A DNA stretch of 64,000 bases from an uncultured Chloroflexia bacterium. GTDB lineage: Bacteria > Chloroflexota > Anaerolineae > Anaerolineales > Anaerolineaceae. Below, piece after piece: positions 9,351 to 47,327 of the stretch (positions are counted from its first letter, which is position 1; the number at the start of each line of letters is the position of its first letter). Both the position numbers and the translations under genes were made by a program. Below the pieces are notes generated by a model. That model was not told where the DNA came from, did not search any database, and worked only from the letters and a program-made list of their open reading frames with translations. The DNA lies in contig CAWFCH010000003.1 in NCBI GenBank assembly GCA_963814295.1, forward strand, positions 598,366-662,365. Reading direction: 5' to 3'.

Positions 9351-10693
9351 TGTGGGTTTTCATGATTTTGATCAATATCTCATCTTCGTTTTCCAACACT
9401 GTGCGCGGGTCCAACAGCAGCCTGCCGCCCTGAACCCTTCCGATCAACGCGGGTTTCGCCTGCCGAAGTTGAGCAGCGAATGCAGTCCACCCGCGGGATG
9501 TTGAATGATAGCACAAAGGTTGGCAGTGTTTCTTCCGGCAGACTCCCGCCGCCAACTGTGGATCGTTCCTCCACCACTTCCCCGCTGCCGATCTGCTGCC
9601 GCCAGTATACAGCTCGTTGTTTGAGCTCTCCAGTTGAAATTGAGATCATCCGCCACACCGGGATCGCCTGTGTTGCGTCTCCTCGCAGATAATGCTGCAG
9701 TGTAGCGCTCAGCGCAGCCAGGCATAATTTATCCGCACGGATGGCGCGCGCCAGCGGGTGACGTTTGATCCTGGCAATTAACACCGCCTTACCGATGATG
9801 ATGCCTGCCTGCGGACCGCCGAGCAGTTTATCGCCGGAAAAACATACCAGGTCTACCCCCGCCTTAAGGGATTCCTGCACCATTGGCTCATGCGCCAAAC
9901 CGAAAAGGGTTGTGTCCAGCAACGCGCCGGAACCCAGGTCATCCAGCACGGGTACATCGTAGTGATGGGCCAGCGTGACGAGTTCCTCCAGGTCCGGTTG
10001 TGTGGTGAACCCGACCAATTTGAAGTTGGAGCTGTGCGCGCGCATCATCAATGCCGCGCCATCCTGCAGCGCATTCTCGTAATCCGCCAGGTTGACCCGG
10101 TTGGTGGTACCGACTTCGACCAGCCGAGCGCCCGATTGCTTCATCACATCCGGGATGCGAAAACCACCGCCGATCTCCACCAGCTGCGAGCGTGAGATCA
10201 CCACCCCCCGCCTTCTCGCGAGCGCTGATAAACACAACAAAACGGCGCCAGCGTTGTTATTGACCACCAGCGCGTCCTCCGCGCCGTTTAACCGGCACAA
10301 TAGGTTGCTGGCGTGCACACTGCGGGAACCCCGTTTGCCTTTTTCAAGGTCATACTCCAACGTGGAAAACCCACTGCCTATTGTGTAGATGGCTTCAAGT
10401 GCGCTCTGGCAGAGCGGTGCCCTGCCCAGGTTGGTGTGCAATATCACACCGCTGGCGTTGATCACCCTGTTAAGCGTGGGTTTCGACTGCTGAATGAGCA
10501 GCTTCTCGCATCGCTTTAACAAGACTTCCCCGGAAAGTTCATCCCCTTCCTGTTCAGGGTCCTGCCTGATACGTTCAAGGACCATTTGAATGGCATCAAC
10601 AACCTGGGTCCGCCCAAATTGCTCGATAAGTGCAACCGCGTTCGGATGGTTCACAAGCTTATCCACAGAAGGGAGCTTGCGTAGATCAATCAT
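9325..10693 (-). pseudogene. selA: L-seryl-tRNA(Sec) selenium transferase SelA with a C-terminal frame break near 9490 (or assembly indel)
   Basis: 437-aa ORF with SelA motifs (NASGVILHTNLGRAPL, FSGDKLLGGPQAG). The conserved C-terminus (AAQLRQAKPALIGRVQGGRLLLDPRTV) lies in overlapping ORF 9325..9555. The junction is at cccgcggg. Confidence 0.75.
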
Positions 10694-11129
10694 GGGGGTT
10701 TTTACGAGGCGAGAACCGGCTTTGCTCGCGCATGCGGATGATCAACTCAATGGCAATAAAGCCGATGGCAATGAAAATTGCCAGGGCGTAATTAAGAACC
10801 TTCCCGAACTGAAGCCACAGGAGAATGTTTGCGTAGATACCAAACCCGGCTGCTTCACGAATGATGACCTTTGAAGACACCGGTGGTTGTGATGGGAAGC
10901 GCAGGTGAAGGTAATAAATCACCGGCAGCGACAGTCCGCTAAAAAGCAGGGTGACAAGAAAGAACAATAGCCATCGCGGACCAAGCGTCGGGACAGTGAA
11001 AATGAACAAAGCCAACAACCCGATCAATCCTATACCGACCAGCACAAGGCTAGCGGTGAGTACCGGTAGAAATTTGGATTGTTGGGCTTGGGGTGCTTCC
11101 TGGCTCAAGAGAGGTTCCTTTAATTTCAA
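10686..11129 (-). CDS. hypothetical membrane protein (about 4 TM)
   Basis: Hydrophobic 147-aa ORF whose stop overlaps the selA start by 8 nt. Confidence 0.55.
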   Translation of the reverse strand: MKLKEPLLSQEAPQAQQSKFLPVLTASLVLVGIGLIGLLALFIFTVPTLGPRWLLFFLVTLLFSGLSLPVIYYLHLRFPSQPPVSSKVIIREAAGFGIYANILLWLQFGKVLNYALAIFIAIGFIAIELIIRMREQSRFSPRKNPHD

Positions 11130-11251
11130 TGATATTTCATTATATCAATAGCAGCGTTTAATGAGCAACTTCTTGGGGCTGGTAGCTCATAGGAAAGTTG
11201 TTGCAAGATTCAAACCCGCGGGGTATTGACAGATTTATCAGTTTTCATTCG

Positions 11252-11260
11252 TGGTAAAAT
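11252..11260 (+). promoter_or_regulatory. candidate extended -10 promoter element (TGGTAAAAT) for the metH leader
   Basis: TGnTAAAAT lies about 28 nt upstream of riboswitch P1. The nearby TTGACA (11226-11231) is spaced 23 nt away, too far for a standard -35. Confidence 0.3.
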
Positions 11261-11287
11261 CTACCTCATACAGGGTGAATGTCACCC

Positions 11288-11387
11288 GCTCATCAAGAGA
11301 GGTGGAGGGACCGGCCCGCAGAAACCTCGGCAACCGCGCAAGCAGCCTGGTGCCAACTCCGGCAGAAGGAATTCTGAAAGATGAGAG
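11288..11387 (+). promoter_or_regulatory. SAM-I (S-box) riboswitch
   Basis: gCTCATCAAGAGAGGTGGAGGGAccGGCCCgcaGAAACCtcGGCAACC...GGTGCCAActCCgGCAG...GAAAGATGAG matches the S-box consensus, including P1 pairing (gctcatc/gatgag). Confidence 0.85.
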
Positions 11388-11460: not shown

Positions 11461-14400
11461 ATGGAACGAAAATACACCAATCGCAAATACCTGGACGCGC
11501 TCAAGCACAAGATCATCGTTTTTGACGGGGCCATGGGCACCAACCTGCAGAACCAGGAACTGACCGCCGCACATTTCGGTGGTGAAAAGACAAACGGTTG
11601 CAACGATTACCTGGTCATCACCTTTCCGCAGGCTGTGGAAAAGGTCCACCGTTCTTTCCTTGAGGTTGGTGTGGATGTAATCGAAACCTGTACATTCCGA
11701 TCCAACCGTCTCACACTGGCGGAATACGGGCTCTCGGATAAAACTCACTTGATCAATAAGACAGCTGCTGAATTGGCACGCCGCCTGGCAGATGAATATT
11801 CCTCCTCCGGGCAGCAGCGCTTCGTTGCCGGGTCAATCGGTCCATCGGGTAAACTCCCGTCAATGAGCGACGCGGAACTCTCGAACATCACATTCGATGA
11901 ACTCGCCGCGATCTTCAAGGAACAGGCTACCGGATTGATCGAAGGTGGCGTGGACCTGATCCTGATTGAAACCTCTCAGGACATTCTCGAAGTTAAGGCC
12001 ATAATCCGCGGTATACAAGAAGCATTCACAGAAACAGGTGTTTACCTGCCGATACAGGCGCAAATCACGCTGGACACGACCGGGCGCATGCTGCTGGGAA
12101 CTGATATTTCAGCAGTGCTGGCGATCCTGGAAAAAATGGCCATCGACCTTATAGGCATGAATTGCTCCACCGGCCCTGACTTCATGCGTGAACCCATTCG
12201 CTTCCTTGGTGAAAATTCCCCGCTGCCGGTATCCTGCGTACCCAACGCCGGTCTGCCACTGAATGTGAATGGACAGGCGGTCTATCCATTGGAACCTGAA
12301 CCGTTCGCTCAAACCCTTTACGAGTTTGCTTCTAATAACGGAGTCAACGTGGTGGGCGGTTGCTGCGGCACCACTCCTGCTCACCTCGCCCTGCTGGTGA
12401 AAAAAGTTCGTGGTGTGCCGGTTACCCCCCGTCCTTCCTCCCTACCTGCGCGTCTTTCTTCAGCCATTCAGGCGCAGCCGATGCAGCAAGAGCCACCTCC
12501 CTTCTTCATCGCGGAAAGGCTGAATACCCAGGGTAGCCGCAATTTCAAGAAGATGGTGCTTGATGATGACTTTGAAAGCATTCTCACCCTCGCCCAGCAG
12601 CAGGTTGAAAGCGGCGCGCATGGGCTTGACCTATGCGTAGCACTCACTGAAAGGGCGGATGAAAAAGAGACCCTTCAACAACTCATCAAGACCGTCGCCC
12701 CCGTGATCAATCTGCCCCTGGTCATCGACACCACCGAGATCGATGTGCTTGAAACAGCGCTCAGAACCGCTCCCGGGCGCTGCTTGATCAACTCCACTCA
12801 CCTCGAAGGCGGCAGGGAAAAAGCCGACAGGATATTTGACCTGGCCAAAATGTATAACGCGGCAGTTATCGTCCTTACCATCGATGAGCAGGGAATGGCC
12901 AAGACCCGTGAACGCAAGCTGGAAGTGGCAAAACGTATTCACGACATCGCGGTTATCGAACACGGTCTGGATCCCGATGACCTGGTCTTCGACGACCTGA
13001 CCTTTACCCTCGCCACCGGATCAGATGAATTCGCGGCATCAGCCATAGAGACTATCGAAGGAATCCGCTTGATAAAAGACGCCCTGCCGGGTGTACTCAC
13101 ATCTCTTGGAGTCAGCAACGTATCCTTCGGGCTGGCACCCAACGCTCGCAAGGTCATCAACAGTGTCATGTTATATCACTGCGTGCAGGCGGGTCTTGAC
13201 ATGGCCATCGTCAACCCGGCAACCATCACCCCCTACCCGGATATCACTCCTGAAGAACGTGAATTGGCCGAGGACCTGATCTTCAACCGTACACCTGACG
13301 CGCTGCAGCAGTTGATTGAATACTTCCAGGAAGCCGGACCCGGTGAAGTCCAGGCGAACACGCAGCAGGAAGCCCTAAGCGCGATGACACCAGCTGAACG
13401 CCTTCACTGGAAGATCGTTCACCGCCACAAGGAGGAGATCGAAGCCGATATCGATACCCTGCTGGACGCTGGTGAGACCGGGGCGAGCCGCAATGATACT
13501 GCCGTTGGCATTCTTAACAATGTACTGCTGCCAGCGATGAAGGAAGTGGGCGATAAATTTGGCAGGGGTGAGCTTATCCTGCCATTCGTGCTGCAATCCG
13601 CTGAGGTGATGAAAAAGACGGTTACTTACCTTGAAAACTTCCTCGAACGCAAGGAAGGCACCAGTAAAGGTAAACTGGTGCTGGCCACCGTTTACGGTGA
13701 CGTTCACGATATTGGCAAGAACCTGGTCAAGACCATCCTCTCCAATAACGGGTACACCGTGGTCGATCTCGGAAAACAGGTACCGGCTGATACCATCATC
13801 ACCCGCGCGGTTGAAGAAAACGCTGATGCGATCGGTTTAAGCGCCCTGCTGGTGAGCACAAGTAAACAGATGCCGCTCATCGTCAATGAATTGCACCGGC
13901 GCGGACTCAAAATCCCCGTGCTGGTTGGGGGAGCGGCCATCAACCAGCGTTTCGGCAGGCGCATCCTGCAGACCGAAGACGGAACCTTTTATGAATCCGG
14001 TGTCTTTTACTGCAAGGATGCCTTTGAGGGACTTGCCACCATGGACGCGCTGTCTGATCCTGATAAGCGTGTCTCCATCGGGGAACGCATCTTGAGGGAA
14101 GCAAACATTGAACTCGAACGACCCGAGCCCGCGGCCAGAAGCGAAAGAAGCCCGCTTGAAAAAACCGTGAAACCAGCTCTCAGCATCCCAGGCGTTCCTG
14201 CTTATGGCGCACGCGTGGTCAACGAAATGCCGCTCGAGCTGGTCTTCGAAAACCTTGCGATAAATGAATTATTCCGCCTGTCATGGGGGGCAAAGAACGC
14301 CCATGGAGACGAATGGGAAAAGATCAAAGCCGATTATGAAAAGCGCCTGGCTTCCATGCGTAAGCAGGCAGCGGCTGAAAAATGGTTGAAACCAAGGGGG

Positions 14401-34193: not shown

Positions 34194-35183
34194 ATGATAA
34201 CCGATACGCGCCAGAATTACCGCGTGCTGCTGCCTGGATTGCTGCTGGGGTTGGCAGCCTTTATCATCCTGATCTTCCTTAGCAACTCCACACGGGTCTT
34301 CACACTTTTCGGGTCGTTCAAGTGGACGTACTTCGGGGTAGCCGTAGGTCTCAATTTAGTGCATCACGCGCTGCGTTTTCTCAATCTCTCCTTATCCCTT
34401 AATTTATCCGGTATCCGCAGGCTCTCTCTCAAGAAGAGGATGATCTTTTACATCTCCAGTTCAGCGCTGACCGCGGCTGACCCGAAGTCGAACGATTCTT
34501 ACCGCTCGGTCTGGCTCAGCAAAGCCTGCGGCATCCCTCTCATCCGCATCGATTCCATTTTCCTCATCGACCAGCTTTCTGATGGTTTGAGCATCCTTGC
34601 GCTGGCAACACTCGGCATCCTTGCCTATCCGGCGTTCTGGCCGTTTTTCGCGGTCATGCTCGGTCTTTTCATTTTGTCGATCGTCTTCCTGCAGATCAAA
34701 TCCGCCGGAGAAGGGTTGCTGGACGCGGGAGAAAAGTTACCCCTGTTTAGGCTTTATAGCCGGCAGTTGCGCCAATGTATGGAAGGCAATGAGTGTTTGT
34801 TTAAGACATTTCCCATGACCCTCTCACTGCTGCTTAATGTGCTGTCTTGGATCGCGCTGGCAGCGGCGCTCTTTTTTATCCTGATCGGATTCGGTTTGAC
34901 CGCCGACCTGACCCTGGCGGCCGTCGCCTGCCTGGTGCTGGCGTTTTCCATCATGATCGGATTCTTTTCCACCGTTCCCGGCGGCCTGGGCGTGATCGAA
35001 TTAGCGCTGGCCGGTTTGCTCACCTTCCTGCTGGGTTTTCAGCCCGAGCTTGCCGTCACCGCCACCATCCTCTTCCGTATGTCCACCTTCTGGATCAGCC
35101 TGCTCTTTGGTATACTTTTCTGGTCTGCCGCGGCAAAGTCATGCGCGGTAGAACCGGGAGCGGGCAGCGTTGCTGAAGGTTGA
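34194..35183 (+). CDS. flippase-like membrane protein (LPG synthase TM / UPF0104 family)
   Basis: Eight predicted TM helices and a TVPGGLGVIELALAGLL motif. Confidence 0.65.
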   Translation: MITDTRQNYRVLLPGLLLGLAAFIILIFLSNSTRVFTLFGSFKWTYFGVAVGLNLVHHALRFLNLSLSLNLSGIRRLSLKKRMIFYISSSALTAADPKSNDSYRSVWLSKACGIPLIRIDSIFLIDQLSDGLSILALATLGILAYPAFWPFFAVMLGLFILSIVFLQIKSAGEGLLDAGEKLPLFRLYSRQLRQCMEGNECLFKTFPMTLSLLLNVLSWIALAAALFFILIGFGLTADLTLAAVACLVLAFSIMIGFFSTVPGGLGVIELALAGLLTFLLGFQPELAVTATILFRMSTFWISLLFGILFWSAAAKSCAVEPGAGSVAEG

Positions 35184-35820
35184 TTTTCACACCCACACAC
35201 ATTACTCCAAAGACAGCCTCACGCGCATCGATAAGCTGATTGCTGCCGCGCGTTCACGCGGACTGGACCGGATCGTGGTGACCGACCACAATGTGCTGGC
35301 AGGCGCGCTTGAAGCCTGGCGCGCGGCACCCGACCTGGTGATTCCCGGCGAAGAAGTGCAAACCACTGAGGGCGAGTTCCTCGCTGCTTACGTGACGATT
35401 GAGGTCCCCCGCGGGCTCGAGCCGCTGGAAGCGCTCAAGCGCCTGCGCGACCAGGGTGCCTTCATCAGCATCTCCCATCCCTTCGACCCCCAACGCTCCG
35501 GCTGGAGCCGCGCCACGCTGGACCTCATCGCCCCACTGGTGGACGCCATCGAGACCGGCAACGCGCGCGTGTTCGTGCCCAGGTACAACCGCCAGGCCGC
35601 GGCTTACGCAGAAATGCTTGACCTGCCGGGCACCGCCGGCTCAGACGCGCATCACCAGAGCGAGGTTGGCTGTATGTATGCCCTGCTGCCTGATTTCCAC
35701 GACGCCGAAAGCCTGCGCGCCGCCATTCGCTCTGCCCAGGTGCACGGCAGATCCTCCTCCCCGCTGGTGCATCTCTATTCCATGCGCGCACGGGTGGTGA
35801 AAGTTTTACGAAAATCGTGA
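35170..35820 (+). CDS. PHP domain metal-dependent phosphoesterase (TTG start)
   Basis: KVDFHTHTHYSKDS, VTDHN and GSDAHH motifs. It overlaps the upstream gene by 14 nt. Confidence 0.75.
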   Translation: MLKVDFHTHTHYSKDSLTRIDKLIAAARSRGLDRIVVTDHNVLAGALEAWRAAPDLVIPGEEVQTTEGEFLAAYVTIEVPRGLEPLEALKRLRDQGAFISISHPFDPQRSGWSRATLDLIAPLVDAIETGNARVFVPRYNRQAAAYAEMLDLPGTAGSDAHHQSEVGCMYALLPDFHDAESLRAAIRSAQVHGRSSSPLVHLYSMRARVVKVLRKS

Positions 35821-35893
35821 ATCGAGAATAGAGAACGGAGAATCGTGAAAGTTAGGAGGATTCTCAACTCTCGATTCCCTACTCTCGTTTTTG
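35821..35893 (+). terminator. long imperfect hairpin plus T-run, candidate terminator
   Basis: Core gagaatc/gattctc and outer cgaga/tctcg pairings, followed by ttttt. Confidence 0.4.
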
Positions 35894-35920
35894 TGAATTG
35901 CGATAAAATAGAACTTGCCT

Positions 35921-36004
35921 GGGGCGATGGCGGAATAGGCAGACGCAACGGACTTAAAATCCGTCGATGGTGACATCGTGAGGGTTCGACCCCCTCTCGC
36001 CCCA
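35921..36004 (+). tRNA. tRNA-Leu(UAA), class II with long variable arm; CCA not encoded
   Basis: Acceptor GGGGCGA/TCGCCCC plus discriminator A. Anticodon arm ACGGA-CTTAAAA-TCCGT, variable arm cgatggtgacatcg, T arm GAGGG-TTCGACC-CCCTC. Confidence 0.9.
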
Positions 36005-36062
36005 CTTTTTGTTCTAATGTTTTCATTGATCCCGCTTGACTTGAAAATCTCATCAAGTCACA

Positions 36063-36117
36063 GGGGGGCAAGCCCCGCCCTTCGCGAAGAACGCTCGGGT
36101 GCATGCCTCTCGCCCCA
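36063..36117 (+). repeat. modular repeat copy R1 (GC hairpin + 30-nt spacer + tRNA-3'-end-like 11-mer)
   Basis: ggggggcaagcccc | gcccttcgcgaagaacgctcgggtgcatgc | ctctcgcccca. Confidence 0.8.
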
Positions 36118-36148
36118 CAAATTCTGTAAATAACCGACACGCCTGCCT

Positions 36149-36273
36149 GGAGCGATTGGCGGCGACCGCAGGGAGGGCAGCTAGCACCGGACTTAAAATC
36201 CGTCGATGGTGACATCGTGAGGGTTCGACCCCGCCCTTCGCGAAGAACGCTCGGGTGCACGCCTCTCGCTCCA
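36149..36273 (+). other. rearranged tRNA-Leu(UAA)-like gene copy (contains repeat copy R2 at 36219-36273)
   Basis: 36188-36232 is identical over 45 nt to 35949-35993. Acceptor is GGAGCGA/TCGCTCC (compensated). The D region is expanded, and 30 nt are inserted in the T-stem 3' strand. Confidence 0.65.
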
Positions 36274-36287
36274 CAAATGGATCTGTT

Positions 36288-37391
36288 TTATGGTTCTAAC
36301 TCTGTACAATATTGATCATGATCGCAGTCACTAAAATACGTAATCGATGCTACCGTACCCCAACATTCATCTTGACCCCAATCATCGCATAATTGATGGC
36401 CAATAGTTAGATCTGAATAAGTGTAATCTGTTTGGGGTTCAACGTACCTGATACCCTTATCAGATGTTTCAAACGCCACAAAAGCATGACCAATCTCTCC
36501 ATTGGTGAAATCCACACCAACTATCCAAGCATTGATGTTCTCCATTCTTGCATTCTCAACTAGGTCTATTGCATAGTCCAGACATACATAATTATCTATG
36601 TCATATGGTTTCCAATTGGTATGATCCCGAGCTATAAAGTCAGCCAGCTCCTTCCATGTTATTGAGTGGTAAGATGGTGTGGGGGTTTCTTCTGGTCTTT
36701 TCGGGGTAGTTGAACTCAATGGATTGTAATTAACAACGGTTATATTATCAAAAGCGTATTCTGCATCACTAGAACTACTTGGAAATATACACAAACCGAT
36801 ATCACCTGACGTGAAAGAAGAATCATTTACACTACCGACAAAGGTATTGTTAACATAGAAATCTAAAATGTTGTTGTTCATTGAGATGGTAATATTGTTT
36901 GTTCTAGTTCCGGTTAATATACTTGTGGAATTCACCATACGTAATAATGAACTTGGAGTGTTGTTAACGTACTTCTCAACATGAAAATAACCATCATTCT
37001 TAATTAAGAATAAATACCCATTACTATCTCTGTTGTCCCTAAAAAGAATCCCGGCTTCGGAATCACTACCTCCTGAGATTTGACGAATATCTGCATTGAT
37101 CACACCATCCGAAAAAGCCCCTCCTGCATAAACACAATTACCCATATCGCCCTTATAGTTCAGGAAATGATATTGTTCATTAGAAATATATGATTTCCCC
37201 TCATCATCTTCACCAATCCACCAACTACTCTGCGCATCTGAAAAATCTTCGAAGTATAGAATATCTGAATTAGCTGATTCATTTGTACTGGTGGGATCTA
37301 CTAAACTGTCCGGTTGTGTTATACCCGTGGAAGTACATCCTGACAGCAGCAGTATAAAAAATATAACAATAGTATTTCTCATGAACAACAT
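36288..37391 (-). CDS. hypothetical lipoprotein: LamG/jelly-roll-like N-domain plus putative Cys-His (transglutaminase/papain-like) C-domain
   Basis: Lipobox LLSGC and AT-rich codon usage. C-terminal YVCLDYA ... GHAFVAF ... YVEPQTD is spaced like a Cys-His-Asp triad. Confidence 0.5.
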   Translation of the reverse strand: MLFMRNTIVIFFILLLSGCTSTGITQPDSLVDPTSTNESANSDILYFEDFSDAQSSWWIGEDDEGKSYISNEQYHFLNYKGDMGNCVYAGGAFSDGVINADIRQISGGSDSEAGILFRDNRDSNGYLFLIKNDGYFHVEKYVNNTPSSLLRMVNSTSILTGTRTNNITISMNNNILDFYVNNTFVGSVNDSSFTSGDIGLCIFPSSSSDAEYAFDNITVVNYNPLSSTTPKRPEETPTPSYHSITWKELADFIARDHTNWKPYDIDNYVCLDYAIDLVENARMENINAWIVGVDFTNGEIGHAFVAFETSDKGIRYVEPQTDYTYSDLTIGHQLCDDWGQDECWGTVASITYFSDCDHDQYCTELEP

Positions 37392-37393
37392 GT

Positions 37394-39054
37394 TTAAAGT
37401 TTCTCAAACCCTTTCCTGATCACCTGGGCCATTGCTTTTCCACGCGCTTCAAGAAAATCAGGATATTTCATGTCGTACCATCGATCAGGTAAGGCATGAA
37501 GGAAGTTGATCTTTTTCCATTCATCTTTTGAATATCTATCTTGATAAACTTTGAAATACTTGGATGGAGGAACATCCGAAATATCGATATTGTCATTCCA
37601 CTCCACAAGTGCAAAGTTCGCCACCTGGTTTGTATCACGGACCTCTTTTATCCCTATTGAGTAGAGATACCCTTTCGGAAATAGGTGATGCCTCTCGACT
37701 GCTGATTTTTTTGCATTGATCTTGGGATCAAGAAGGTCGGCGACAGATAGGTTAGAGAAAAGAACTGGGGCTTTTAGGTTAGACGAATGCTGCGTAATAA
37801 GCCAACATCGATGGAGGTCTTGGGAAAGAGGTTTCCATTTGGTTTGGTAATGTAATCGCCCAGAAATCCTCAGTAAGCGCATCATCAATGAGGTGGTTTA
37901 ATCATTCAATGTATTCTTCACCTGTTTTGATGTCCCGTAATCGATTTAGGTCCTGTTCCATGACCGTTTCAAATGAGCCCGAATATCTACTCGTGAGAGC
38001 GGTCATAAAGAACCATTTAGATATCAATTTCCTCAACCGTTGATGGTCGATGTCGTAATCATATTTTCCGATCAGGTAAAAGACATAGGCATACATCAGT
38101 CCATTTTGCGAACTGATCAACTGGTCACTCACATAACCTGCTGAAAGGATGGCTTTAAGAAATTCATGCCAATTCTGTAAATCAAGAACTCTACTCTGCG
38201 CTTTTTCCAGAACAAGGAATTGCTGATCTCTTCGGGCATCAGAAAACTCTTCTGTTTCGAGGTCTTTTCCTCGGAGGATCAAATACGCATATTTCAGTCT
38301 TGCACGTTTGAACCCAAAGCCAACACAGGTCCTCAATAGTTGATCAGGATCTGGTTGAATATAGTAATTAAATGACGTAGGCTTCTTGTCTACGGGTGCA
38401 ATTCGAGATTCTCTGCAAAATGCTTCTAATTGTTTGCGTCCTTCTTCCCAGAAAACAGACATCAACGTAAGGATGAAATCCGCCTGGTTGAGCGGAGTAC
38501 CCTTACTATTCACACGAACAAATATTTCAGATACTTCTTCTTCGTTTGCTGCACTACTGACCTCTAAAACCGTAAATGGATATAACCTGATGTTATCCAG
38601 ATTGTTGATGTTAGTTTGGATAAGAGTTTCATCATCTTCGCTTACTGGTCTTGATTCAGCCAGCCTAGTAATATAATCCTTTGCTACACCGAATATTCCA
38701 TTCTTGTGTGACCAAATCAGGGAAATATCACTAATGAATTCTGGATTTCTCGCAATCGCCGCATCATATACCTCAAATTTTTCAGTCAAAGGGTTGAAAG
38801 CAATCAGAATTTTTTCTTTTCTAAAATCCTCCCGGAGCACCGGTATGTTGAAACCCAGGTGGATGAAGCAACACGACGTGATCATTCTGACCGATACTGG
38901 ATTTATCGACGAGCATTACCAGGAAACAAAAACCTCCGCCTGCTGTTACTTCACCTTCGCCGGTGTGGATAAACCCCAGAACGATGCGTCGATTTTTAAA
39001 GAAAACGCTATAAGCCAGGGTAGCGTTTTTATGATCACTTTTAAATTTCACCAA
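37394..39054 (-). pseudogene. decayed DUF262/DUF1524 (GmrSD-like type IV restriction family) gene
   Basis: Three ORF pieces in different frames. DUF262 core is FVRVNSKGTPLNQADFI. An in-frame TGA at 37902-37904 is followed by 40 more protein-like codons. The DUF1524 His-Me motif is ERHHLFPKGYL...NFALVEWNDN. The N-terminal motif region is missing at repeat R3. Confidence 0.7.
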
Positions 39055-39059
39055 GTTGT

Positions 39060-39115
39060 GGGGGGGTACGACCCGCCATACTCAAAGAACGCTCGGGTGC
39101 ATACCTATCGCCCCA
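39060..39115 (+). repeat. modular repeat copy R3
   Basis: gggggggtacgaccc | gccatactcaaagaacgctcgggtgcatac | ctatcgcccca. Confidence 0.8.
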
Positions 39116-39150
39116 TAAAATTTGACCATCGCCGATACGTACCTGGAGGA

Positions 39151-40585
39151 CTAAGCCGCTTTTTCCTGCGTGTGAGCAGCACAATCACGACCACTGCCGC
39201 GACCACGACTGACGGCCACCGCGAAATAGATGCCCAGGAACCACCCGATACGCGGAGCAGGAGCCTCTGCAGTGTCTGGTGATAACTCCTCAGCCTCAGC
39301 GCCGTAAGGAAGGACAACAATATTGGGTTCACCGGGTCCAGCCGTTCTGGCGTTGCCCGCGTCAACGGCTGCCACCTGTGGCCAGCTAGCGCTCTCGGCG
39401 GCGATATCGAAGATTTGCAGTTCGCCTAACCCCTCTGAATCCGCGGAGAGCAAGCTGCCGGTTTCGACCATCACGCGATTCGCCGGTCGCTTTCGATGTG
39501 AACTCCACAGTGCCTTCTATGACTTTTACAGTTGAGCTGGTGCCATCATCTTCCAGGACAAGTGTGGTGCCTTTGATCCCGGTTACTGCTTGACCCATCT
39601 CAATCTCCATCGAGCCATCCTTTATCATTCTTTTAAAATTGATCCATAGCTGTCCGCCAAGCAGTTTAAATTGACCAGGTTTTGCCTGCGGTTTCGACAA
39701 ATAGATTTCCGTTTCAGGCTTCATGGAAAAGGTTGTCATATCGGCAAAAGACAGGATGACTGTGCTTCTGTCGCTTGTTTTTATTCGCGTTCCTTCGGGA
39801 AGCGTCATATCAAGTTTGGCAATCGTCCAGGCTTCCTCATCCCAATCCGGCTCGCCGTCTGCCATATATCCTTTCGGGATCAACACTTCCACCTGCCCTG
39901 ATAAATCGCTGAAGCGGGCACCTGAATCCGGGAAGGTCACGGCGGGGGGTACCAAGGGAGCAACGATTGGGATTGGGTTAGTAGATGGTGGATTGCCCTT
40001 CAGTCCAGTAACTGTGACCCAGATTTCATCTGCTGCTGCTGAACTGGCATAACCGAGAAAGACTGAAACAGAAAAGCCATTCGCTCTTATTTCGTCGGTG
40101 ATAGTGACCACCACCGGTTTTGGTGAAAAACTCCATCCCGGCGCACCGTTACTATCCGGGGCACGGAAAGTTTCAATTTTTTCGTTGTTCAACCGAACAT
40201 CACCATCAGTTGCCCAACTTCCTGTGATGCTATAGGGTCCATAAACCGTACATTGAATTGTCACCTGGCTTCCGGTTGGATACCCGTCTATAACTGCCGA
40301 AGGATAAAATGATTCATTTGATTGAACCGCAAGTCCCTCAACGGTATACTCGATAACGAGCCCTTTTCTACCTTCTATTTTCCCGGATGCGGAATCATCG
40401 TTCTGGAGAGAAATGTTATTCAGCGGACCTTCCCAACCTTTTCCGGAAAATGTCAATTCTTCGGGCTGTAAATAGCGGCTGGATGTCGATTCCTGCTTTG
40501 CGGGAAAGGAGGAAACTGAGAGTGGGGTTGCCAGCAGGAAGGCAGTCAGGATACAGTTCGTGAAAATAAAAGTTGAACGGTTCAT
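39151..40585 (-). pseudogene. secreted FecR-domain protein with C-terminal hydrophobic anchor, frame break near 39476 (possibly a second near 39200)
   Basis: Signal peptide, a beta-rich N-region, then a FecR-like segment (ARFSDLSGQVEVL...GIKGTTLVLEDDG..VKVIEGTVEF). The sequence continues in ORF 39151..39474 (VMVETGSLLSA...). A TM plus RRKKR lies in a third frame. Confidence 0.6.
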
Positions 40586-40782
40586 CGTTGCTCCTTTATC
40601 AAAACCAGGCTCGGCAATAGATGGTACGGATCGGTTGTGTCGTGATACACCAATGTATCCAGCACAGGAGCTTCATGCAACACCCCTACCGCAATGAGTG
40701 AAAAGTCGGAAGCCGCGAGTCCGCTTTGTATAGGCATGAAAAACATGAAAAGGGCGATTAAACAGATGAATATTTTTTTCAT
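40582..40782 (-). CDS. small secreted hypothetical protein
   Basis: 66 aa with signal peptide MKKIFICLIALFMFFMPIQSGLA. The stop overlaps the start of the FecR-domain gene (ATGA). Confidence 0.45.
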   Translation of the reverse strand: MKKIFICLIALFMFFMPIQSGLAASDFSLIAVGVLHEAPVLDTLVYHDTTDPYHLLPSLVLIKEQR

Positions 40783-41053
40783 TTCACACCCCTAAATTTT
40801 CATAATAATTGGGTTAAAAGGCTGTACGCCAAGTCAATAAACCTATTCTATTTAAATTATAGGCTCTATTTTTTAAATCATCCTTGAATTTTGCGGGTAC
40901 ATGCTGACCCCCCGTACAAAAAACCTGATATGCTGCATCGCTTTGCGCCCTAAGTGCTATAATCATTAACAGGGTATCATCACATTAGTTCATCAAGTCC
41001 TGTTCCAAAAGGTCGTTTATAGAAAATAATTCATACAACAACAGAGGGAGATT

Positions 41054-42202
41054 ATGATGAGTATGATAAAGCGTTTTAGGCCTTTTATATTCTTTGCATG
41101 TGTCATATTGAGCGTATCGCTTGCTTGTGGCAGCAGCACCCCTACCCCAACAGAATCTACCGCTGTTGGTGAAGTAGGTCAATTGGACACAATAAACACG
41201 CTTGTATCCACAATGATGCCTGAACCCATTGCTACACCAGAGCCGGCCAGTATCCCGACCGCCATGCCTGTAGGGTTAAGCCGTTCTCAACCATTCCCGC
41301 GTTCAGAAATTGTGCCTGCTCCCAATTGGGATGTCCAGGTGCTCGAAGTAAAACGCGGTGATGAGGCATGGAATGAGATCCTCGCCGCAAATCAGTATAA
41401 CGACGCTGCCCCGGAAGGTATGGAATATCTCTTAATAAAGTTGCACGTTATGAGTACATATGCAGATAATGAAGAACACACCATCGGTCATTGTGATTTT
41501 AATGTTACAGGTGACCGGTTAATCCTGTATTCTTGTCTGTCAACTTTTGCTGTTTCGCCAGAACCACAACTGGACGCAACACTTTTCACTGGCGGTGAGA
41601 CAGAAGGCTGGATCTCATATTTAGTTGGGAAGGGCGAAGGAAACTTGATTCTTATTGTAGATGAAGGTCTTAACTTCGATGATGGTTCTAGTCGATTCAT
41701 TGCCATTGATGAAGGTGCTTCCATAAGTGTATCTCCTGATTTTGCTTCACTTGCACCCACCAATTTGGGGACAGATAGAATGTCTCCGGCACCAATGGGT
41801 GAAAAACTTGTTTCGGATGATTGGGAAATCACGATTCTTGAATCCATCCGCGGTGAAGAGGCGTGGAATATTGTTCTGGAAGCAAATCAGTATAATGACC
41901 CGCCTGAGGCGGGTATGGAATTTATTTTAGTAAAAGTACACGCCCGGAACATAAGCACACAGGATATCGCCCAGTCCATGGATTTCACTTCCTTTACAAC
42001 CACTGGAAGTGCAAATGAAATCTATGATGCTCCGTGGGCTGTTGCTCCAGAACCTATTCTTACTTCATCCTTATTTCCAGGTGGAGAAACCGAAGGTTGG
42101 ATAGTGGTACAAGCGGCAATATCCGAAACAGGCGTGAATCTGATCTTTGCACCACTTTGGGATTTCAGCGGAAATTCTAAACGTTACATATCTCTTGAAT
42201 AG
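41054..42202 (+). CDS. lipoprotein with two tandem DUF4352-like domains
   Basis: Lipobox SLACGS. Internal duplication: WDVQVLEVKRGDEAWNEILAANQYNDAAPEGMEYLLIKLHV versus WEITILESIRGEEAWNIVLEANQYNDPPEAGMEFILVKVHA. Confidence 0.65.
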   Translation: MMSMIKRFRPFIFFACVILSVSLACGSSTPTPTESTAVGEVGQLDTINTLVSTMMPEPIATPEPASIPTAMPVGLSRSQPFPRSEIVPAPNWDVQVLEVKRGDEAWNEILAANQYNDAAPEGMEYLLIKLHVMSTYADNEEHTIGHCDFNVTGDRLILYSCLSTFAVSPEPQLDATLFTGGETEGWISYLVGKGEGNLILIVDEGLNFDDGSSRFIAIDEGASISVSPDFASLAPTNLGTDRMSPAPMGEKLVSDDWEITILESIRGEEAWNIVLEANQYNDPPEAGMEFILVKVHARNISTQDIAQSMDFTSFTTTGSANEIYDAPWAVAPEPILTSSLFPGGETEGWIVVQAAISETGVNLIFAPLWDFSGNSKRYISLE

Positions 42203-42221
42203 ACCCAAGGGGTATATATAA

Positions 42222-42274
42222 GGGGCATGCCCCGCTTTTCACAAAGAACGCTCGGGTGCATGTCTCTCGCCCCG
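42222..42274 (+). repeat. modular repeat copy R4
   Basis: ggggcatgcccc | gcttttcacaaagaacgctcgggtgcatgt | ctctcgccccg. Confidence 0.8.
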
Positions 42275-42319
42275 CAAGTGAATAGTTTTGGTGCGTTTTC
42301 AACGCACCAACGAAAATCC

Positions 42320-43300
42320 CTACGGTTGCCACGCCGGGGAGGAGGCGGTGATCCCCTCGGGCAGCTCCAGCAGCGTTCTCACTTCCCCCGTCTCCACGTT
42401 AACAATAAAGATATTACGCATCACCACGCTGTTGCCCACGGCGATCTCGCGCGCGTCCGGTGACCAGGTGCACATCACCTCCTCGGAGAATTCCGGTTCA
42501 GTCAGCCGGTGCACATCACTACCGTCCCTGTTCATCACGTACAACGCGAACAGGTTGTAGGTGCCGTCGCGCTCCGAGAAGAAGGCGATCTGCTGCCCAT
42601 CATGCGACCAGGTGGGCTTGATGTTCGCCCACACGTCATTAGTGAGTGCAATATCGCTCGAGTCCGCCAGGTTCTTCACATGGATCTGGCTGGAGCCGTC
42701 GTTGCGTTCCTGCTGCTCGACGAGCGACATGTACGCCAGGTACTGACCGTCCGGTGACCACGCCGGGGTCTGGAAGAAGAAATCATACGAGGGTACGCTG
42801 AATTTCGTGATCTCGTGCGTATCCAGGTCGTACATGCGCCACCACCACACGCCGTTGCCATCGTGGGTTCGGAACACCACCTGGTGACCGTTGGGTAGCC
42901 AGATGGGATGGTCGTTCTCATTGTCCTCGGTCAGGCGCTGGGGATACTTGCCGTCCGCGTCCATGATGTAGATCTGGCTTGCCCCACCGCCGCGCGTTGA
43001 TGTGAAGGCGATGCGCCTGCCATCCGGTGACCACGCCGGGTCGGTATCGATTAGCCACTCGTTGGTGATGTTCACCAGGTTGCTGCCGTCTGGGCAGACG
43101 GTGTGAATATCCGCGTTCGCGCCGTCGGTGATCACAAACGCGATTTTCGAGCAATCTCCGGCAGTTGTCGCGGTCACGGTGGGAACGGGTTCCGCGGTCT
43201 CCATCGGGAGTATAGCGGGAAGCTCTGTTGGCGCGTTGCTGCCGCACGCGGTGAGGACCATGATGAAGGCAAGATAGATCAACAGGCATAATTTTTTCAT
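42320..43300 (-). CDS. TolB-like PD40 beta-propeller lipoprotein
   Basis: Start MKKLCLL with lipobox LTACGS. Repeats SPDGRRIAFTS, SPDGQYLAY, SHDGQQIAFFS and SPDAREIAV. Confidence 0.75.
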   Translation of the reverse strand: MKKLCLLIYLAFIMVLTACGSNAPTELPAILPMETAEPVPTVTATTAGDCSKIAFVITDGANADIHTVCPDGSNLVNITNEWLIDTDPAWSPDGRRIAFTSTRGGGASQIYIMDADGKYPQRLTEDNENDHPIWLPNGHQVVFRTHDGNGVWWWRMYDLDTHEITKFSVPSYDFFFQTPAWSPDGQYLAYMSLVEQQERNDGSSQIHVKNLADSSDIALTNDVWANIKPTWSHDGQQIAFFSERDGTYNLFALYVMNRDGSDVHRLTEPEFSEEVMCTWSPDAREIAVGNSVVMRNIFIVNVETGEVRTLLELPEGITASSPAWQP

Positions 43301-43365
43301 GGGTACATTATAATCAGAATGTTCACATCCTTTCCGGGTCAATTCTTAAACAATTTTTTGATCTT

Positions 43366-45372: not shown

Positions 45373-47327
45373 ATGACAAAACTTCGACCCTTACTGAAAT
45401 CATTTTTCCAGCCATTCGCCTGCATCGCCTGGTCGCCCGTGAGCCTGCTGGTGATAACCGCTGCCATTGCCGCGCTCTATGTCACCATGGAGTGGGTTTT
45501 CATATTCACCCGTCCGTCATTCCTGCAAACGATCCCGTTCCTGGAAAAATCTCAGTCCTTCGTCAGCGCGGCCGGATTGCTTATCCTTGTTTGTTTCCTC
45601 ATTCTCTCCCCGCTCCTGCTGCTCGGTCTGATTGTTAGAAACCAACGTTCAGGAAAATCCTCACCGCAATCGCGTTCCTGTTACCGTCATTCCTGCTCAC
45701 CTCGCTGGCCTTGGTGATGCTGGATAACTTCACCTACACGGTCTTTAATTTTGGCATTGTCTCCACCAGCGGAATAACCCGTGCGCTCTACACCGCCCTC
45801 TACCTGGCAGCGGCATTGTTCCTCTTCACCCGGCTCATCGCTTTTCACAATCTGCTGGCTGCCTTCTTTTCCAGGACGCAACCAAAAAAACGCCTGCTCC
45901 TCATAGGCACGATCCTGCTGCTGGCAGGGGCAGGCGCAGTGCTGCCCGCCGAATCCATCCTCAATACCGCACAGGGCGTGGGCAGGCACCGCCCCACGCC
46001 GAACAGTACCACCCCGCCTGACATCCTGCTCATCACGGTTGACGGTGTCAACGCCGAATACACCTCGATTTACGATCATGAAGAGGATACAACTCCATTC
46101 CTGCGAAAAATGTCCGGTGAATCGCTGAAAGCCCTGAACGCGTTCTCCAACGCCCAGGGAACCATCGGGTCACTCACCGCCATCCTGACGGGGAAACACC
46201 CGGTTGATACGCGTGTCATCAATTCCTCCGATATGCTGAAGGGTGAAGATGCCTACCAGCACTTGCCTGATATCCTGGAGGATTACGGGTATTACACCGC
46301 CCAGCTGAGCAATAATGTTTATGCCGATGCCTACAAGACCAACTTCCAGGATGCATTTAGCGAAGCCAACGGCCGCTCAGCTGAGAATGACCCGCTGATG
46401 TTCACACTCGCGAAGCTGTACCCGGGGATCAACCACATCTTCCAGCAGGAGGTCATCGAGCGGCTAATCTCCAGGCTGGGGCATATCTTCTTTATAAGCG
46501 ACATGGCCAATCCCTATCAACAGGTCACCGAGGCACCGGTAAAGTTCGATGACCAGCAAAAGCTTGAGCAAGTCTTTAACCTGCTCAATGAAATTCGTCA
46601 GCCCCTGTTCATTCACCTGCACTGGATGGGTACTCACGGACCGAACTATTTACCGGAGGAACAGGTCTTCTCGGCTGGTATTAATGTGGAACACCAGGAG
46701 CAGTACAAGCAATTGTTTTACTATGACACGGTGCTCGAGTTTGACCGGGCGGTGGAGGAAATTTACGCTTACCTGGAAGAGAACGACCGCCTCGAGAACA
46801 CCATCATTGTGGTCACCAGCGACCACAGCCAGAAATGGACCAATTCGCGCATCCCGCTGCTGATCCGCTTTCCGGAAAGCGCACACTCGAGCGTTCTTTC
46901 TCAGAATGTTCAGACCATGGATATCGCGCCTACCCTGCTGGATTACCTGTCTATTGAGAAACCCGAATGGATGGCGGGTCAATCCCTGATCTCTTCTTCT
47001 TATGAAGAACACCCCATTTTCACCGCCAAGATTCCAAAATCAAGGAAAGACCTTGTGACCGGCAAGGTCGTCTACCCTGAATCCAAACCGCCTTTTTACC
47101 AGTTCGGCCGAATGTCGGTCATTGTTTGCGACCAATGGTTTGAACTTGATCTGCAGATATTGGCCATGACCAAAGGGACAGTAAAAAAATACCAGTCCCC
47201 ATGTGGTGAGCCTATCAATAATATCCAGGCGCTTGAATTGCTTATTGAACACCTGGAGCATTACGGTTTCGATACCAGTTCGCTTGGAGAATTGAAGACA
47301 GATTTGGGTGACTCGACCGGGAATTGA
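45373..47327 (+). pseudogene. membrane-anchored sulfatase / LTA-synthase-like (alkaline phosphatase superfamily) protein, frame break near 45638 (or assembly indel)
   Basis: N-terminal TM helices are in frame 1 and stop making sense at ...GLIVRNQRSG. Frame 0 continues KPTFRKILTAIAFLLPSFLL... into the catalytic domain (DILLITVDGVNAEY, TGKHP, VVTSDHS). Confidence 0.65.

Follow-up and report, generated by a model that had tools for sequence, protein, structure and literature searches.

Genomic islands that integrate into tRNA genes are marked at their ends by the regenerated target and by displaced fragments of it, and tandem arrays of such islands occur (the Islander principle; PMC4383910, where the sublocation classes of Williams, 2002, are cited). 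In the phylum Chloroflexota, the ssrA islands of Dehalococcoides also stand in tandem; each of their 20-bp repeats has a conserved 15-bp motif immediately before it, which shows no alignment to ssrA and indicates where the insertion took place, and those without an integrase were discussed as cis-mobilizable elements or as products of accretion (PMC3146451). Arrays of the tycheposon type in Prochlorococcus are stacked beside tRNA genes, separated by partial tRNAs and accompanied by degenerate remnants (bioRxiv 10.1101/2020.12.28.424599), and partial tRNA sequences at attR sites are known to be mistaken for tRNA genes (PMC9897764). In this study, a 64-kb stretch from an uncultured member of the Anaerolineaceae (contig CAWFCH010000003.1; hereafter the window, that is, the whole DNA analyzed) was examined for a 125-nt look-alike of tRNA-Leu(UAA) at 36149-36273, which lies downstream of the canonical gene; no literature description of this locus in Anaerolineae was found. 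The look-alike is most probably not a gene, but a mosaic pseudo-tRNA, that is, an attachment (att)-type junction left behind by mobile elements whose site-specific target is the 3′ part of tRNA-Leu(UAA).

At the locus, foreign cassettes stand in tandem with direct repeats of the tRNA 3′ end between them, and related genomes carry tyrosine integrases at the same site. In detail, the window contains the intact tRNA gene and four 3′-end repeats on the same strand, and the DNA between the conserved flanks is foreign in GC content and variable among related loci (L001, L012, and L034). Similar to Islander-type islands, the intact tRNA stands at one end, tRNA 3′ fragments in direct orientation stand at the boundaries, the composition is foreign, the islands are in tandem, the crossover likely falls in the T stem or 3′ end, and an integrase lies beside the tRNA, here in the relatives. 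However, an integrase is required within each Islander-type island, while those of the window lost or never had theirs, and an integrase or its remnant was found at the same tRNA in the related loci L003, L021, L001, and L034. The window fragments also differ in carrying a conserved 30-nt box between a T-arm-like part and the 3′ end, and one of them retains a diverged 5′ half that mimics a full gene.

The functional gene and integration target, on the regenerated attL side, is tRNA-Leu(UAA) at 35921-36004 on the forward strand. ARAGORN called it as the single tRNA of the window (tRNA-Leu(taa), 35921-36005), the Rfam tRNA model matched 35921-36004 at 58.1 bits, its minimum free energy (MFE) structure is a clean cloverleaf, and the gene is conserved beside the PHP gene in about 20 related loci, all in agreement with the canonical tRNA that the first-pass annotation had placed here. 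Both this gene and the look-alike are preceded by tgcct, and a 45-nt block of the look-alike at 36188-36232 (forward strand), covering the anticodon arm, the variable arm, the T-stem 5′ strand, the T loop, and CCCC, is 100% identical to 35949-35993 of the tRNA; a 49-nt repeat family (D4) joined the two at 98% identity. The acceptor strands, GGGGCGA/TCGCCCC in the tRNA, are GGAGCGA/TCGCTCC in the look-alike, which retains a 7-bp acceptor stem with an A3:T70 pair. A28 of the tRNA is C in the look-alike, breaking the first anticodon-stem pair, and 30 extra nt, gcccttcgcgaagaacgctcgggtgcacgc, fill 36233-36262 between ...gacccc and ctctcgctcca, where they interrupt the T-stem 3′ strand after CC and leave 2-3 bp. 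The shared flank, the identical block, the acceptor changes, the A-to-C change at position 28, and the 30 extra nt had all been described in the first-pass annotation and were read directly in the sequence. Its description of the two copies as homologous end to end was accurate for the identical block and generous for the D region: tRNA positions 1-28 aligned to the look-alike with 3 mismatches, 1 deletion, and 12 inserted nt in six gaps, while the next 45 nt contained 0 differences (Fisher p = 0.019, substitutions alone). Because the D region aligns only with gaps while the following 45 nt are identical, the look-alike is a mosaic, the diverged 5′ pseudo-half of which (36149-36187, forward strand) comprises the GGAGCGA acceptor strand, an expanded D region, and a GCAC junction, as outlined by the gapped alignment to tRNA positions 1-28.

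A repeat search of the window detected a 56-nt family with four members, at 36065, 36221, 39063, and 42222, each consisting of a GC hairpin, the 30-nt box, and the tRNA 3′ end CTCTCGCCCCA. The GC hairpin is GGGGCAAGCCCC, while in the look-alike the real T-arm sequence takes its place. The 30 nt, formerly described as an insertion in the T arm of the look-alike, are therefore a component shared by four repeats and not private to this copy; their recurrence with 1 mismatch at 36077-36106, between the tRNA and the look-alike, had been overlooked, and 0 of 100 shuffles gave a chance match to the 30-mer. Besides the look-alike, the box together with the tRNA 3′ end occurs at 36077-36117, 39075-39115, and 42234-42274. 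In the alignment of the four window units, AAGAACGCTCGGGTGCA was unchanged, and the similarity reached about 25 nt to either side; with the copies of a second genome included, this 17-nt core was invariant in 6 copies, while neighboring positions varied.

All four units lie on the forward strand. Unit 1 (36039-36122) is 96% identical over 56 nt to a unit of the closest relative, L034, and is composed of a degenerate anticodon-arm-like hairpin (36036-36060), the T-arm-like hairpin GGGGCAAGCCCC (36065-36076), the box (36077-36106), and the 3′-end repeat CTCTCGCCCCA (36107-36117), which ends 113 nt past the tRNA end. Unit 2 is the look-alike itself, in which the box (36233-36262) joins an 18-nt linker to a second, degenerate T-arm-like hairpin, CGGGTGCACGC, and contains the core AAGAACGCTCGGGTGCA; next to it lies the 3′-end direct repeat CTCTCGCTCCA (36263-36273), which includes the likely crossover segment and has CTCTCGCCCCA as its counterpart in L034. 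Unit 3 (39037-39119) contains the box at 39075-39104 and the repeat CTATCGCCCCA at 39105-39115, and is 75% identical to unit 1 over 103 nt with the flanks included (family D2). Unit 4 (42190-42278), the outermost junction of the attR type, contains the box at 42234-42263 and the repeat CTCTCGCCCCG at 42264-42274.

The nature of the box was indicated by a short unit of the related locus L016. The 3′ part of the box, CGGGTGCACGCC, equals the T-arm-like hairpin of this unit (ttaCGGGTGCACGCCCCCTCTCGCCCCC), which stands in the same place before CTCTCGCCCC, directly ahead of the acceptor 3′ strand, and the layout ACGGG/TGCACGC/CCCTC/TCGCCCC in L016 mirrors a T stem, a 7-nt loop, a T stem, and an acceptor strand, so that a linker plus a second hairpin is the better description of the 30 nt. 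Judged from these sequences, the segment reads best as a linker of 18 nt followed by another T-arm-like hairpin, slightly truncated; this would be element-side att sequence adjoining the crossover, and in the look-alike a tRNA-like arm is then probably fused to the end of such a T-arm-hairpin unit. A hidden Markov model (HMM) of six box units gave weak, diverged matches in L005 and L008 (E ~0.01-0.02); the unit of L005 stands 40 nt after the tRNA, and that of L008 consists of a variable arm, a T-arm-like part, a linker, and a hairpin. In exact scans, the box pattern AAGAACGCTCGGGTGCANNNCTNTCGC had 0 matches in genome contigs and in metagenome contigs, and the 17-mer core alone had 0 matches in viral contigs; therefore, no wide box family is visible in these collections at the DNA level. 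An inverted partial box match at 46879-46906 was rejected as chance, lying inside a sulfatase open reading frame (ORF) and reaching only E = 0.5 with the unit HMM.

Among the known systems, the closest parallel by analogy is that of the Dehalococcoides ssrA islands in the same phylum, with the box playing the same descriptive role as the 15-bp motif. In both cases, several low-GC islands follow one another behind a single-copy tRNA-like gene, and short repeats of its 3′ end close the islands. However, the target there is tmRNA rather than tRNA-Leu, the recombinase is of the serine type (DsiB) whereas the relatives of the window carry tyrosine integrases, the 20-bp repeat plus 15-bp motif compares with 11-13 bp plus a 30-nt box plus a pseudo-tRNA arm here, and one junction here mimics a full-length gene.

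The extent of the inserted DNA was defined by comparison with simple loci. The hairpin GGTGCGTTTTCAACGCACC (42290-42308, forward strand) directly follows the tRNA in simple relatives, with the form GGTG(G/C)GTTTTC(A/G)AC... in L008 and L013/L014, but follows unit 4 in the window, where the β-propeller gene (42320-43342, reverse strand) comes next; therefore, the DNA from 36005 to about 42289 is inserted, and unit 4 is its outermost unit. The GC content of the cassettes was 40-45%, compared with 52-60% in the background. Cassette A (36277-39036, reverse strand, ~40-43% GC) and cassette B (39120-42189; GC 44-45% over 40-42 kb) contain no integrase by ORF and Pfam analysis, no integrase or recombinase was found among the proteins of the whole 36005-42289 island by the same means, and a tblastn search with the integrases of L001 and L003 gave no match in the window. 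Directly 3′ of the tRNA, a T-rich segment (36005-36038, forward strand) differs from the CAAAA-type flank of simple loci and resembles the post-tRNA sequence of L001, although weakly (~65% with gaps); a 2.3-kb island starts at that sequence in L001. From this likeness, the segment is probably the left end of the most recent inserted element, now almost wholly deleted.

For the comparison across the family, 27 loci were collected from species-representative genomes and metagenome contigs. The upstream PHP-domain gene (35170-35820) places the window in an uncultured lineage of Anaerolineaceae, phylum Chloroflexota. The PHP gene has tRNA-Leu behind it, with 95-100% identity, in essentially all Anaerolineaceae loci, and the far flank is syntenic (the β-propeller gene, a 163-aa ORF, DUF6056, a sulfatase, and a Na/H exchanger), while the interval between the tRNA and the β-propeller gene is a variable island in more than 20 related genomes, with 3.3 kb in L001, 4.1 kb in L034, and ~8 kb in L012. 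The whole look-alike was absent from all 27 loci. Intact tyrosine integrase genes stand ~100 nt past the tRNA in L003 (PF00589, E = 7.7e-30) and L021, and integrase remnants were found at tRNA-Leu in L001 and L034. The L001 island carries a HEPN/AbiU2 gene and ends in a plain 62-nt displaced tRNA 3′ fragment, followed by a truncated integrase N-terminus; this fragment starts with the GCAC|CGGACTT junction, as in the window look-alike. These data support one of the explanations offered in the first-pass annotation, an att target or scar for the downstream cassettes, which overlaps with its decaying duplicate, as four repeats bound low-GC cassettes and the same place is a variable island with tyrosine integrases in relatives.

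Rearranged or duplicated tRNA-Leu copies recur in the arrays of relatives and were counted for the scar. L012 carries an ~8-kb array with an Mrr gene and with 1.1-kb single-gene cassettes bounded by pseudo-3′-end units, and a rearranged pseudo-tRNA-Leu at 13265-13350, in which tRNA positions 3-37 are followed by ~40 unrelated nt, CGCGCCCCA, and the usual flank. In L016, a 177-nt direct repeat (11142-11318 and 12655-12831), which takes in an entire tRNA-Leu together with the first trailer unit, stands on both sides of a 1.2-kb single-gene cassette, and a G-to-A change in the second tRNA copy breaks an anticodon-stem pair. One or two tandem units of 82-86 nt follow tRNA-Leu directly in L009 (10849-10934), L012 (10805-10890, 12027-12111), L016 (11232-11396, 12745-12827), and L022 (1756-1920), starting with a terminator-like hairpin plus a T run and ending with a T-arm-like hairpin plus CTCTCGCCCCA. 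These units may be old att scars, which by itself would not account for their constant length and retention. The two-unit arrangement looks orthologous between L016 and L022.

Similar to tycheposon arrays, the arrays at tRNA-Leu consist of elements stacked beside a tRNA with only partial tRNA copies between them, contain fragmented integrases and extra partial tRNAs, and carry defense and adaptation cargo. They differ in the host phylum and in the smaller cassettes (~1-3 kb), and tycheposon hallmark genes were not seen, no test having been aimed at them.

The closest relative, L034, was found from the β-propeller side; it spans the whole locus, and its flanks are ~93% identical to the window at the DNA level. 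In the orientation of the tRNA, it begins with the intact tRNA, which is followed by the N-terminal remnant of an integrase joined to a tRNA-like piece, by two genes for secreted proteins, and then by a unit that runs from the tRNA anticodon loop to the T loop and continues with ACCCTTCGCAAAGAACGCTCGGGTGCACGC and CTCTCGCCCCA. This composite is 97% identical to positions 45-121 of the look-alike. A second unit, 96% identical to window unit 1, lies 56 nt beyond it and is followed by the β-propeller gene. The counterpart of the look-alike in L034 has no 5′ half, and in its acceptor 3′ strand a C replaces the T that is paired with A3 in the window. Hence, as far as the two sequences tell, the composite of T arm, box, and 3′ end is conserved, and the full-length tRNA-like molecule and its "compensated" pair are not. 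The comparison of the orthologous locus, as the first-pass annotation had proposed, therefore retained the box and failed to retain the full-length molecule and the acceptor pair. The integrase remnant of L034 (MFLNSHELRTNLKSNVDDYIETWMEAFLVDRK; 14849-14714, minus strand of the locus) continues in frame into the tRNA-like piece, and the two meet at a CCGGA..AA microhomology, suggesting an illegitimate deletion. Many genes on this contig are split (FTHFS in four pieces), which suggests indel errors of a long-read assembly.

A multi-step history would account for the array, the order of which reads tRNA, collapsed remnants (unit 1 and then unit 2, the look-alike), cassette A, unit 3, cassette B, and unit 4. 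Elements would have entered by site-specific recombination, crossing over within or next to CTCTCGCCCC (the T-stem 3′ strand plus the acceptor 3′ strand), which would leave the intact tRNA at the left and shift older junctions rightwards. Each junction would retain an element-side pseudo-tRNA arm, a linker, and a second hairpin, abutting the shared segment CTCTCGCCCCA. The recombinase would be a tyrosine integrase that acted in trans or has since been lost, and the invariant 17-mer may be a binding site for the integrase or an accessory protein in the att region. Two elements would have collapsed by deletion to ~60-100 nt, giving units 1 and 2, and the perfect 45-nt block in unit 2 probably arose when this unit recombined with the tRNA that lies 228 nt upstream, or was converted by it. 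The A3:T70 match would be a coincidence or a matter of ancestry.

Several observations weigh against this reading of the look-alike as a scar. The window island has no integrase, so its activity cannot be tied to a specific enzyme, and circular or empty-site junctions were not observed. Single-crossover origins were tried at the anticodon loop, the T loop, and the 3′ end, and none gives the 5′ half, the perfect block, and the box together; a multi-step history was therefore assumed, in which the tRNA 5′-like half, the 45-nt block, and the box need at least one extra step of recombination, conversion, or deletion. The order of units differs between the window and L034, so that the history is reconstructed only in part. 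A complementary A3:T70 change is unexpected under pure drift. In addition, a diverged box unit is kept in L005 and L008 at only ~70% identity of the PHP protein, a retention that suggests a function, not necessarily the proposed one.

This retention also counts for a rival reading, in which the box units would themselves be maintained by selection, as dedicated sites of small integrase-less Anaerolineaceae cassettes that are captured and shuffled at the tRNA-Leu 3′ end by a trans-acting tyrosine recombinase, and to which we give a small chance of being right. In its wider form, in which the cassettes move themselves without an integrase, their double T-arm units act like integron attC sites or cis-mobilizable elements, and a tRNA-Leu-specific tyrosine recombinase encoded elsewhere captures them, the proposal is unlikely. 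It is favored by the unit-bounded small cassettes without integrases in the window, L012 (1.1 kb, single gene), and L016, by the 17-nt core that stays invariant in 6 copies amid variable neighbors, and by a 14-bp imperfect inverted repeat within the units, formed by the first hairpin against the second hairpin plus CCTCTC, in which 87% of cells were paired compared with 35-60% in slid controls. However, only one compensatory cell was found in this inverted repeat, not above shuffles, and a structured-RNA or attC-like fold of the units is therefore not claimed. Moreover, there are 2-3 genes per cassette and both gene orientations occur, the aligned units showed no attC-type R/L core motifs (GTTRRRY), the window has neither a dedicated integrase nor a promoter adjacent to the units, and the empty exact scans of the genome, metagenome, and viral collections show no wide family. 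If true, such a system would be a tRNA-anchored analog of an integron array, with the 17-mer as a putative site of the recombinase or an accessory protein. An integron cassette array proper (attI/attC with IntI) was rejected by the lack of an integrase, the lack of GTTRRRY cores, and the multi-gene cassettes of mixed orientation.

It is still less probable that no site-specific recombination took place, and that duplications of the tRNA region, homologous recombination, and unequal crossing-over produced a flexible island maintained by RecA, in which cassettes are swapped via flanking homology. The long direct repeats of L016 span the whole tRNA plus its trailer over 177 nt, the alignment similarity of the look-alike reaches into the tRNA 5′ flank, the integrase remnant of L034 is joined to its tRNA-like piece at a microhomology, and contigs of close relatives break inside the tRNA, all of which speak for such a process. 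Against these stand the integrase genes exactly at the tRNA junction in L003, L021, and L034, the sharp tRNA boundary of the repeats at CTCTCGCCCC, preceded by conserved non-tRNA sequence, and the foreign GC of the cassettes, which are classic marks of site-specific integration (PMC4383910).

The proposal that the look-alike is a functional tRNA-like RNA is very improbable. In this proposal, the expanded D region pairs with the 30 nt, extending the acceptor helix into a long rod capped by the anticodon, variable, and T hairpins, and the A3:U70 pair is under selection. The MFE fold agrees in part, since it keeps the 7-bp acceptor stem and the anticodon and variable hairpins and pairs the expanded D region with the 30 nt; its energy was -56.2 kcal/mol (z = -2.36), and 0 of 200 shuffles were as stable. 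However, the T stem and the D arm are lost in this fold, and the z-score is no better than the embedded tRNA arms predict (the tRNA alone reached -2.48). In the ARAGORN and Infernal/Rfam runs suggested in the first-pass annotation, only the gene at 35921-36004/5 was called and the look-alike was not, even at E values up to 10; its sole match in the tRNA clan was a partial one to tRNA-Sec (36172-36239, 23.5 bits against a gathering score of 47). Neither a normal D arm, nor a 5-bp anticodon stem (the first pair being broken), nor a 5-bp T stem closing a 7-nt T loop (only 2-3 bp being left) is present, and a scan of 35700-36500 found no promoter-like or terminator-like site. As to the pair presented in the first-pass annotation as preserved by compensation, a complementary change was estimated to arise in ~1 of 20 cases, given one change per 7-nt strand; CCTGGAG also follows unit 3, so the A of the look-alike may come from the repeated flank instead of from a mutation of G3. 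In five other box units the acceptor 5′ strand is missing altogether, and the L034 counterpart, also without the 5′ half, keeps its 3′ composite 97% conserved with C70; with the detectors silent as well, the idea of a tRNA-like gene with a selected compensatory pair is not supported. Similar to false tRNA genes at attR sites, the look-alike is a tRNA-like sequence that stands beside the real tRNA of the same anticodon and stems from mobile-element integration, while it differs in being uncalled by the detectors run, unusually complete in its 5′ half, and interrupted.

The group I intron of tRNA-Leu(UAA) lies in the anticodon loop, is about 200 nt or longer, and has a conserved catalytic core. 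Such an intron was rejected, as it had been in the first-pass annotation, on account of the intact anticodon loop CTTAAAA, the 30-nt length of the extra segment, and the lack of a match to any Rfam intron family.

With the att-type junction as the preferred reading, the look-alike should be annotated as an integration scar, and neither as a tRNA nor as a new tRNA-like RNA; scars of this kind are common in genomes, and the instance is fresh while the kind is already known. The four units exactly delimit ~6.3 kb of DNA that this uncultured Anaerolineaceae genome acquired horizontally and that includes a broken GmrSD-type restriction gene and several secreted proteins, and they mark tRNA-Leu(UAA) as a recurrent integration hot spot across the Anaerolineaceae. 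The 17-nt core, together with the short post-tRNA units in relatives, could help to define the att site of an uncharacterized Chloroflexota integrase family, which would extend a known theme rather than add a new mechanism. Such a hot spot also accounts for the metagenome contigs of close relatives that are broken off within tRNA-Leu: those with the closest PHP proteins (93%, 87%, and 84% identity) end ~170 nt past the PHP gene, inside the tRNA, consistent with assembly breaks at a strain-variable, repeat-rich site. Contigs ending inside tRNA-Leu were L030, L031, L032, and L033.

In cassette A, a 367-aa secreted or lipoprotein-like ORF (36288-37391) lies next to a split GmrSD-like restriction gene (37394-37888 and 37902-38885), all on the reverse strand. 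Its two ORFs encode 164 aa and 327 aa, with an ERHHLFPK motif in the short one, and from their sequence look like a frameshifted, N-terminally truncated type IV restriction enzyme of the GmrSD/DUF262 type, which would be a decayed defense gene. Pfam gave GmrSD_N at 30.7 bits, just under the cut-off, and no other match in this cassette. Defense genes occur in the same island of relatives, namely Mrr in L012 and HEPN/AbiU2 in L001. Cassette B encodes a FecR-domain protein (39386-40585, reverse strand), a 66-aa ORF (40582-40782, reverse strand), and a DUF4352 protein (41054-42202, forward strand), the first and last assigned by Pfam.

The hairpin GGTGCGTTTTCAACGCACC at the far edge recurs in L012 (10904-10922, 11188-11206, and ~12127-12145), where it is repeated after each unit, and in L008 (~10872-10890) and L013 (~9573-9590). 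It shows a compensatory change, GCG/CGC in the window and GGG/CCC in L012; no T run follows it on either strand, and it is not an obvious terminator. Spurious long ORFs, antisense to the tRNA and units and encoding the peptide ...GREGVEPSRCHHRRILSPLRLPIPP..., run through the window (35775-36260, reverse strand), L021 (9481-9675, reverse strand), and L034 (14868-15119, forward strand), and were annotated by gene callers in some assemblies. Elsewhere in the window, a SAM riboswitch (S-box leader) was detected at 11287-11387 on the forward strand (86.8 bits against a gathering score of 44.4), which is unrelated to the look-alike.

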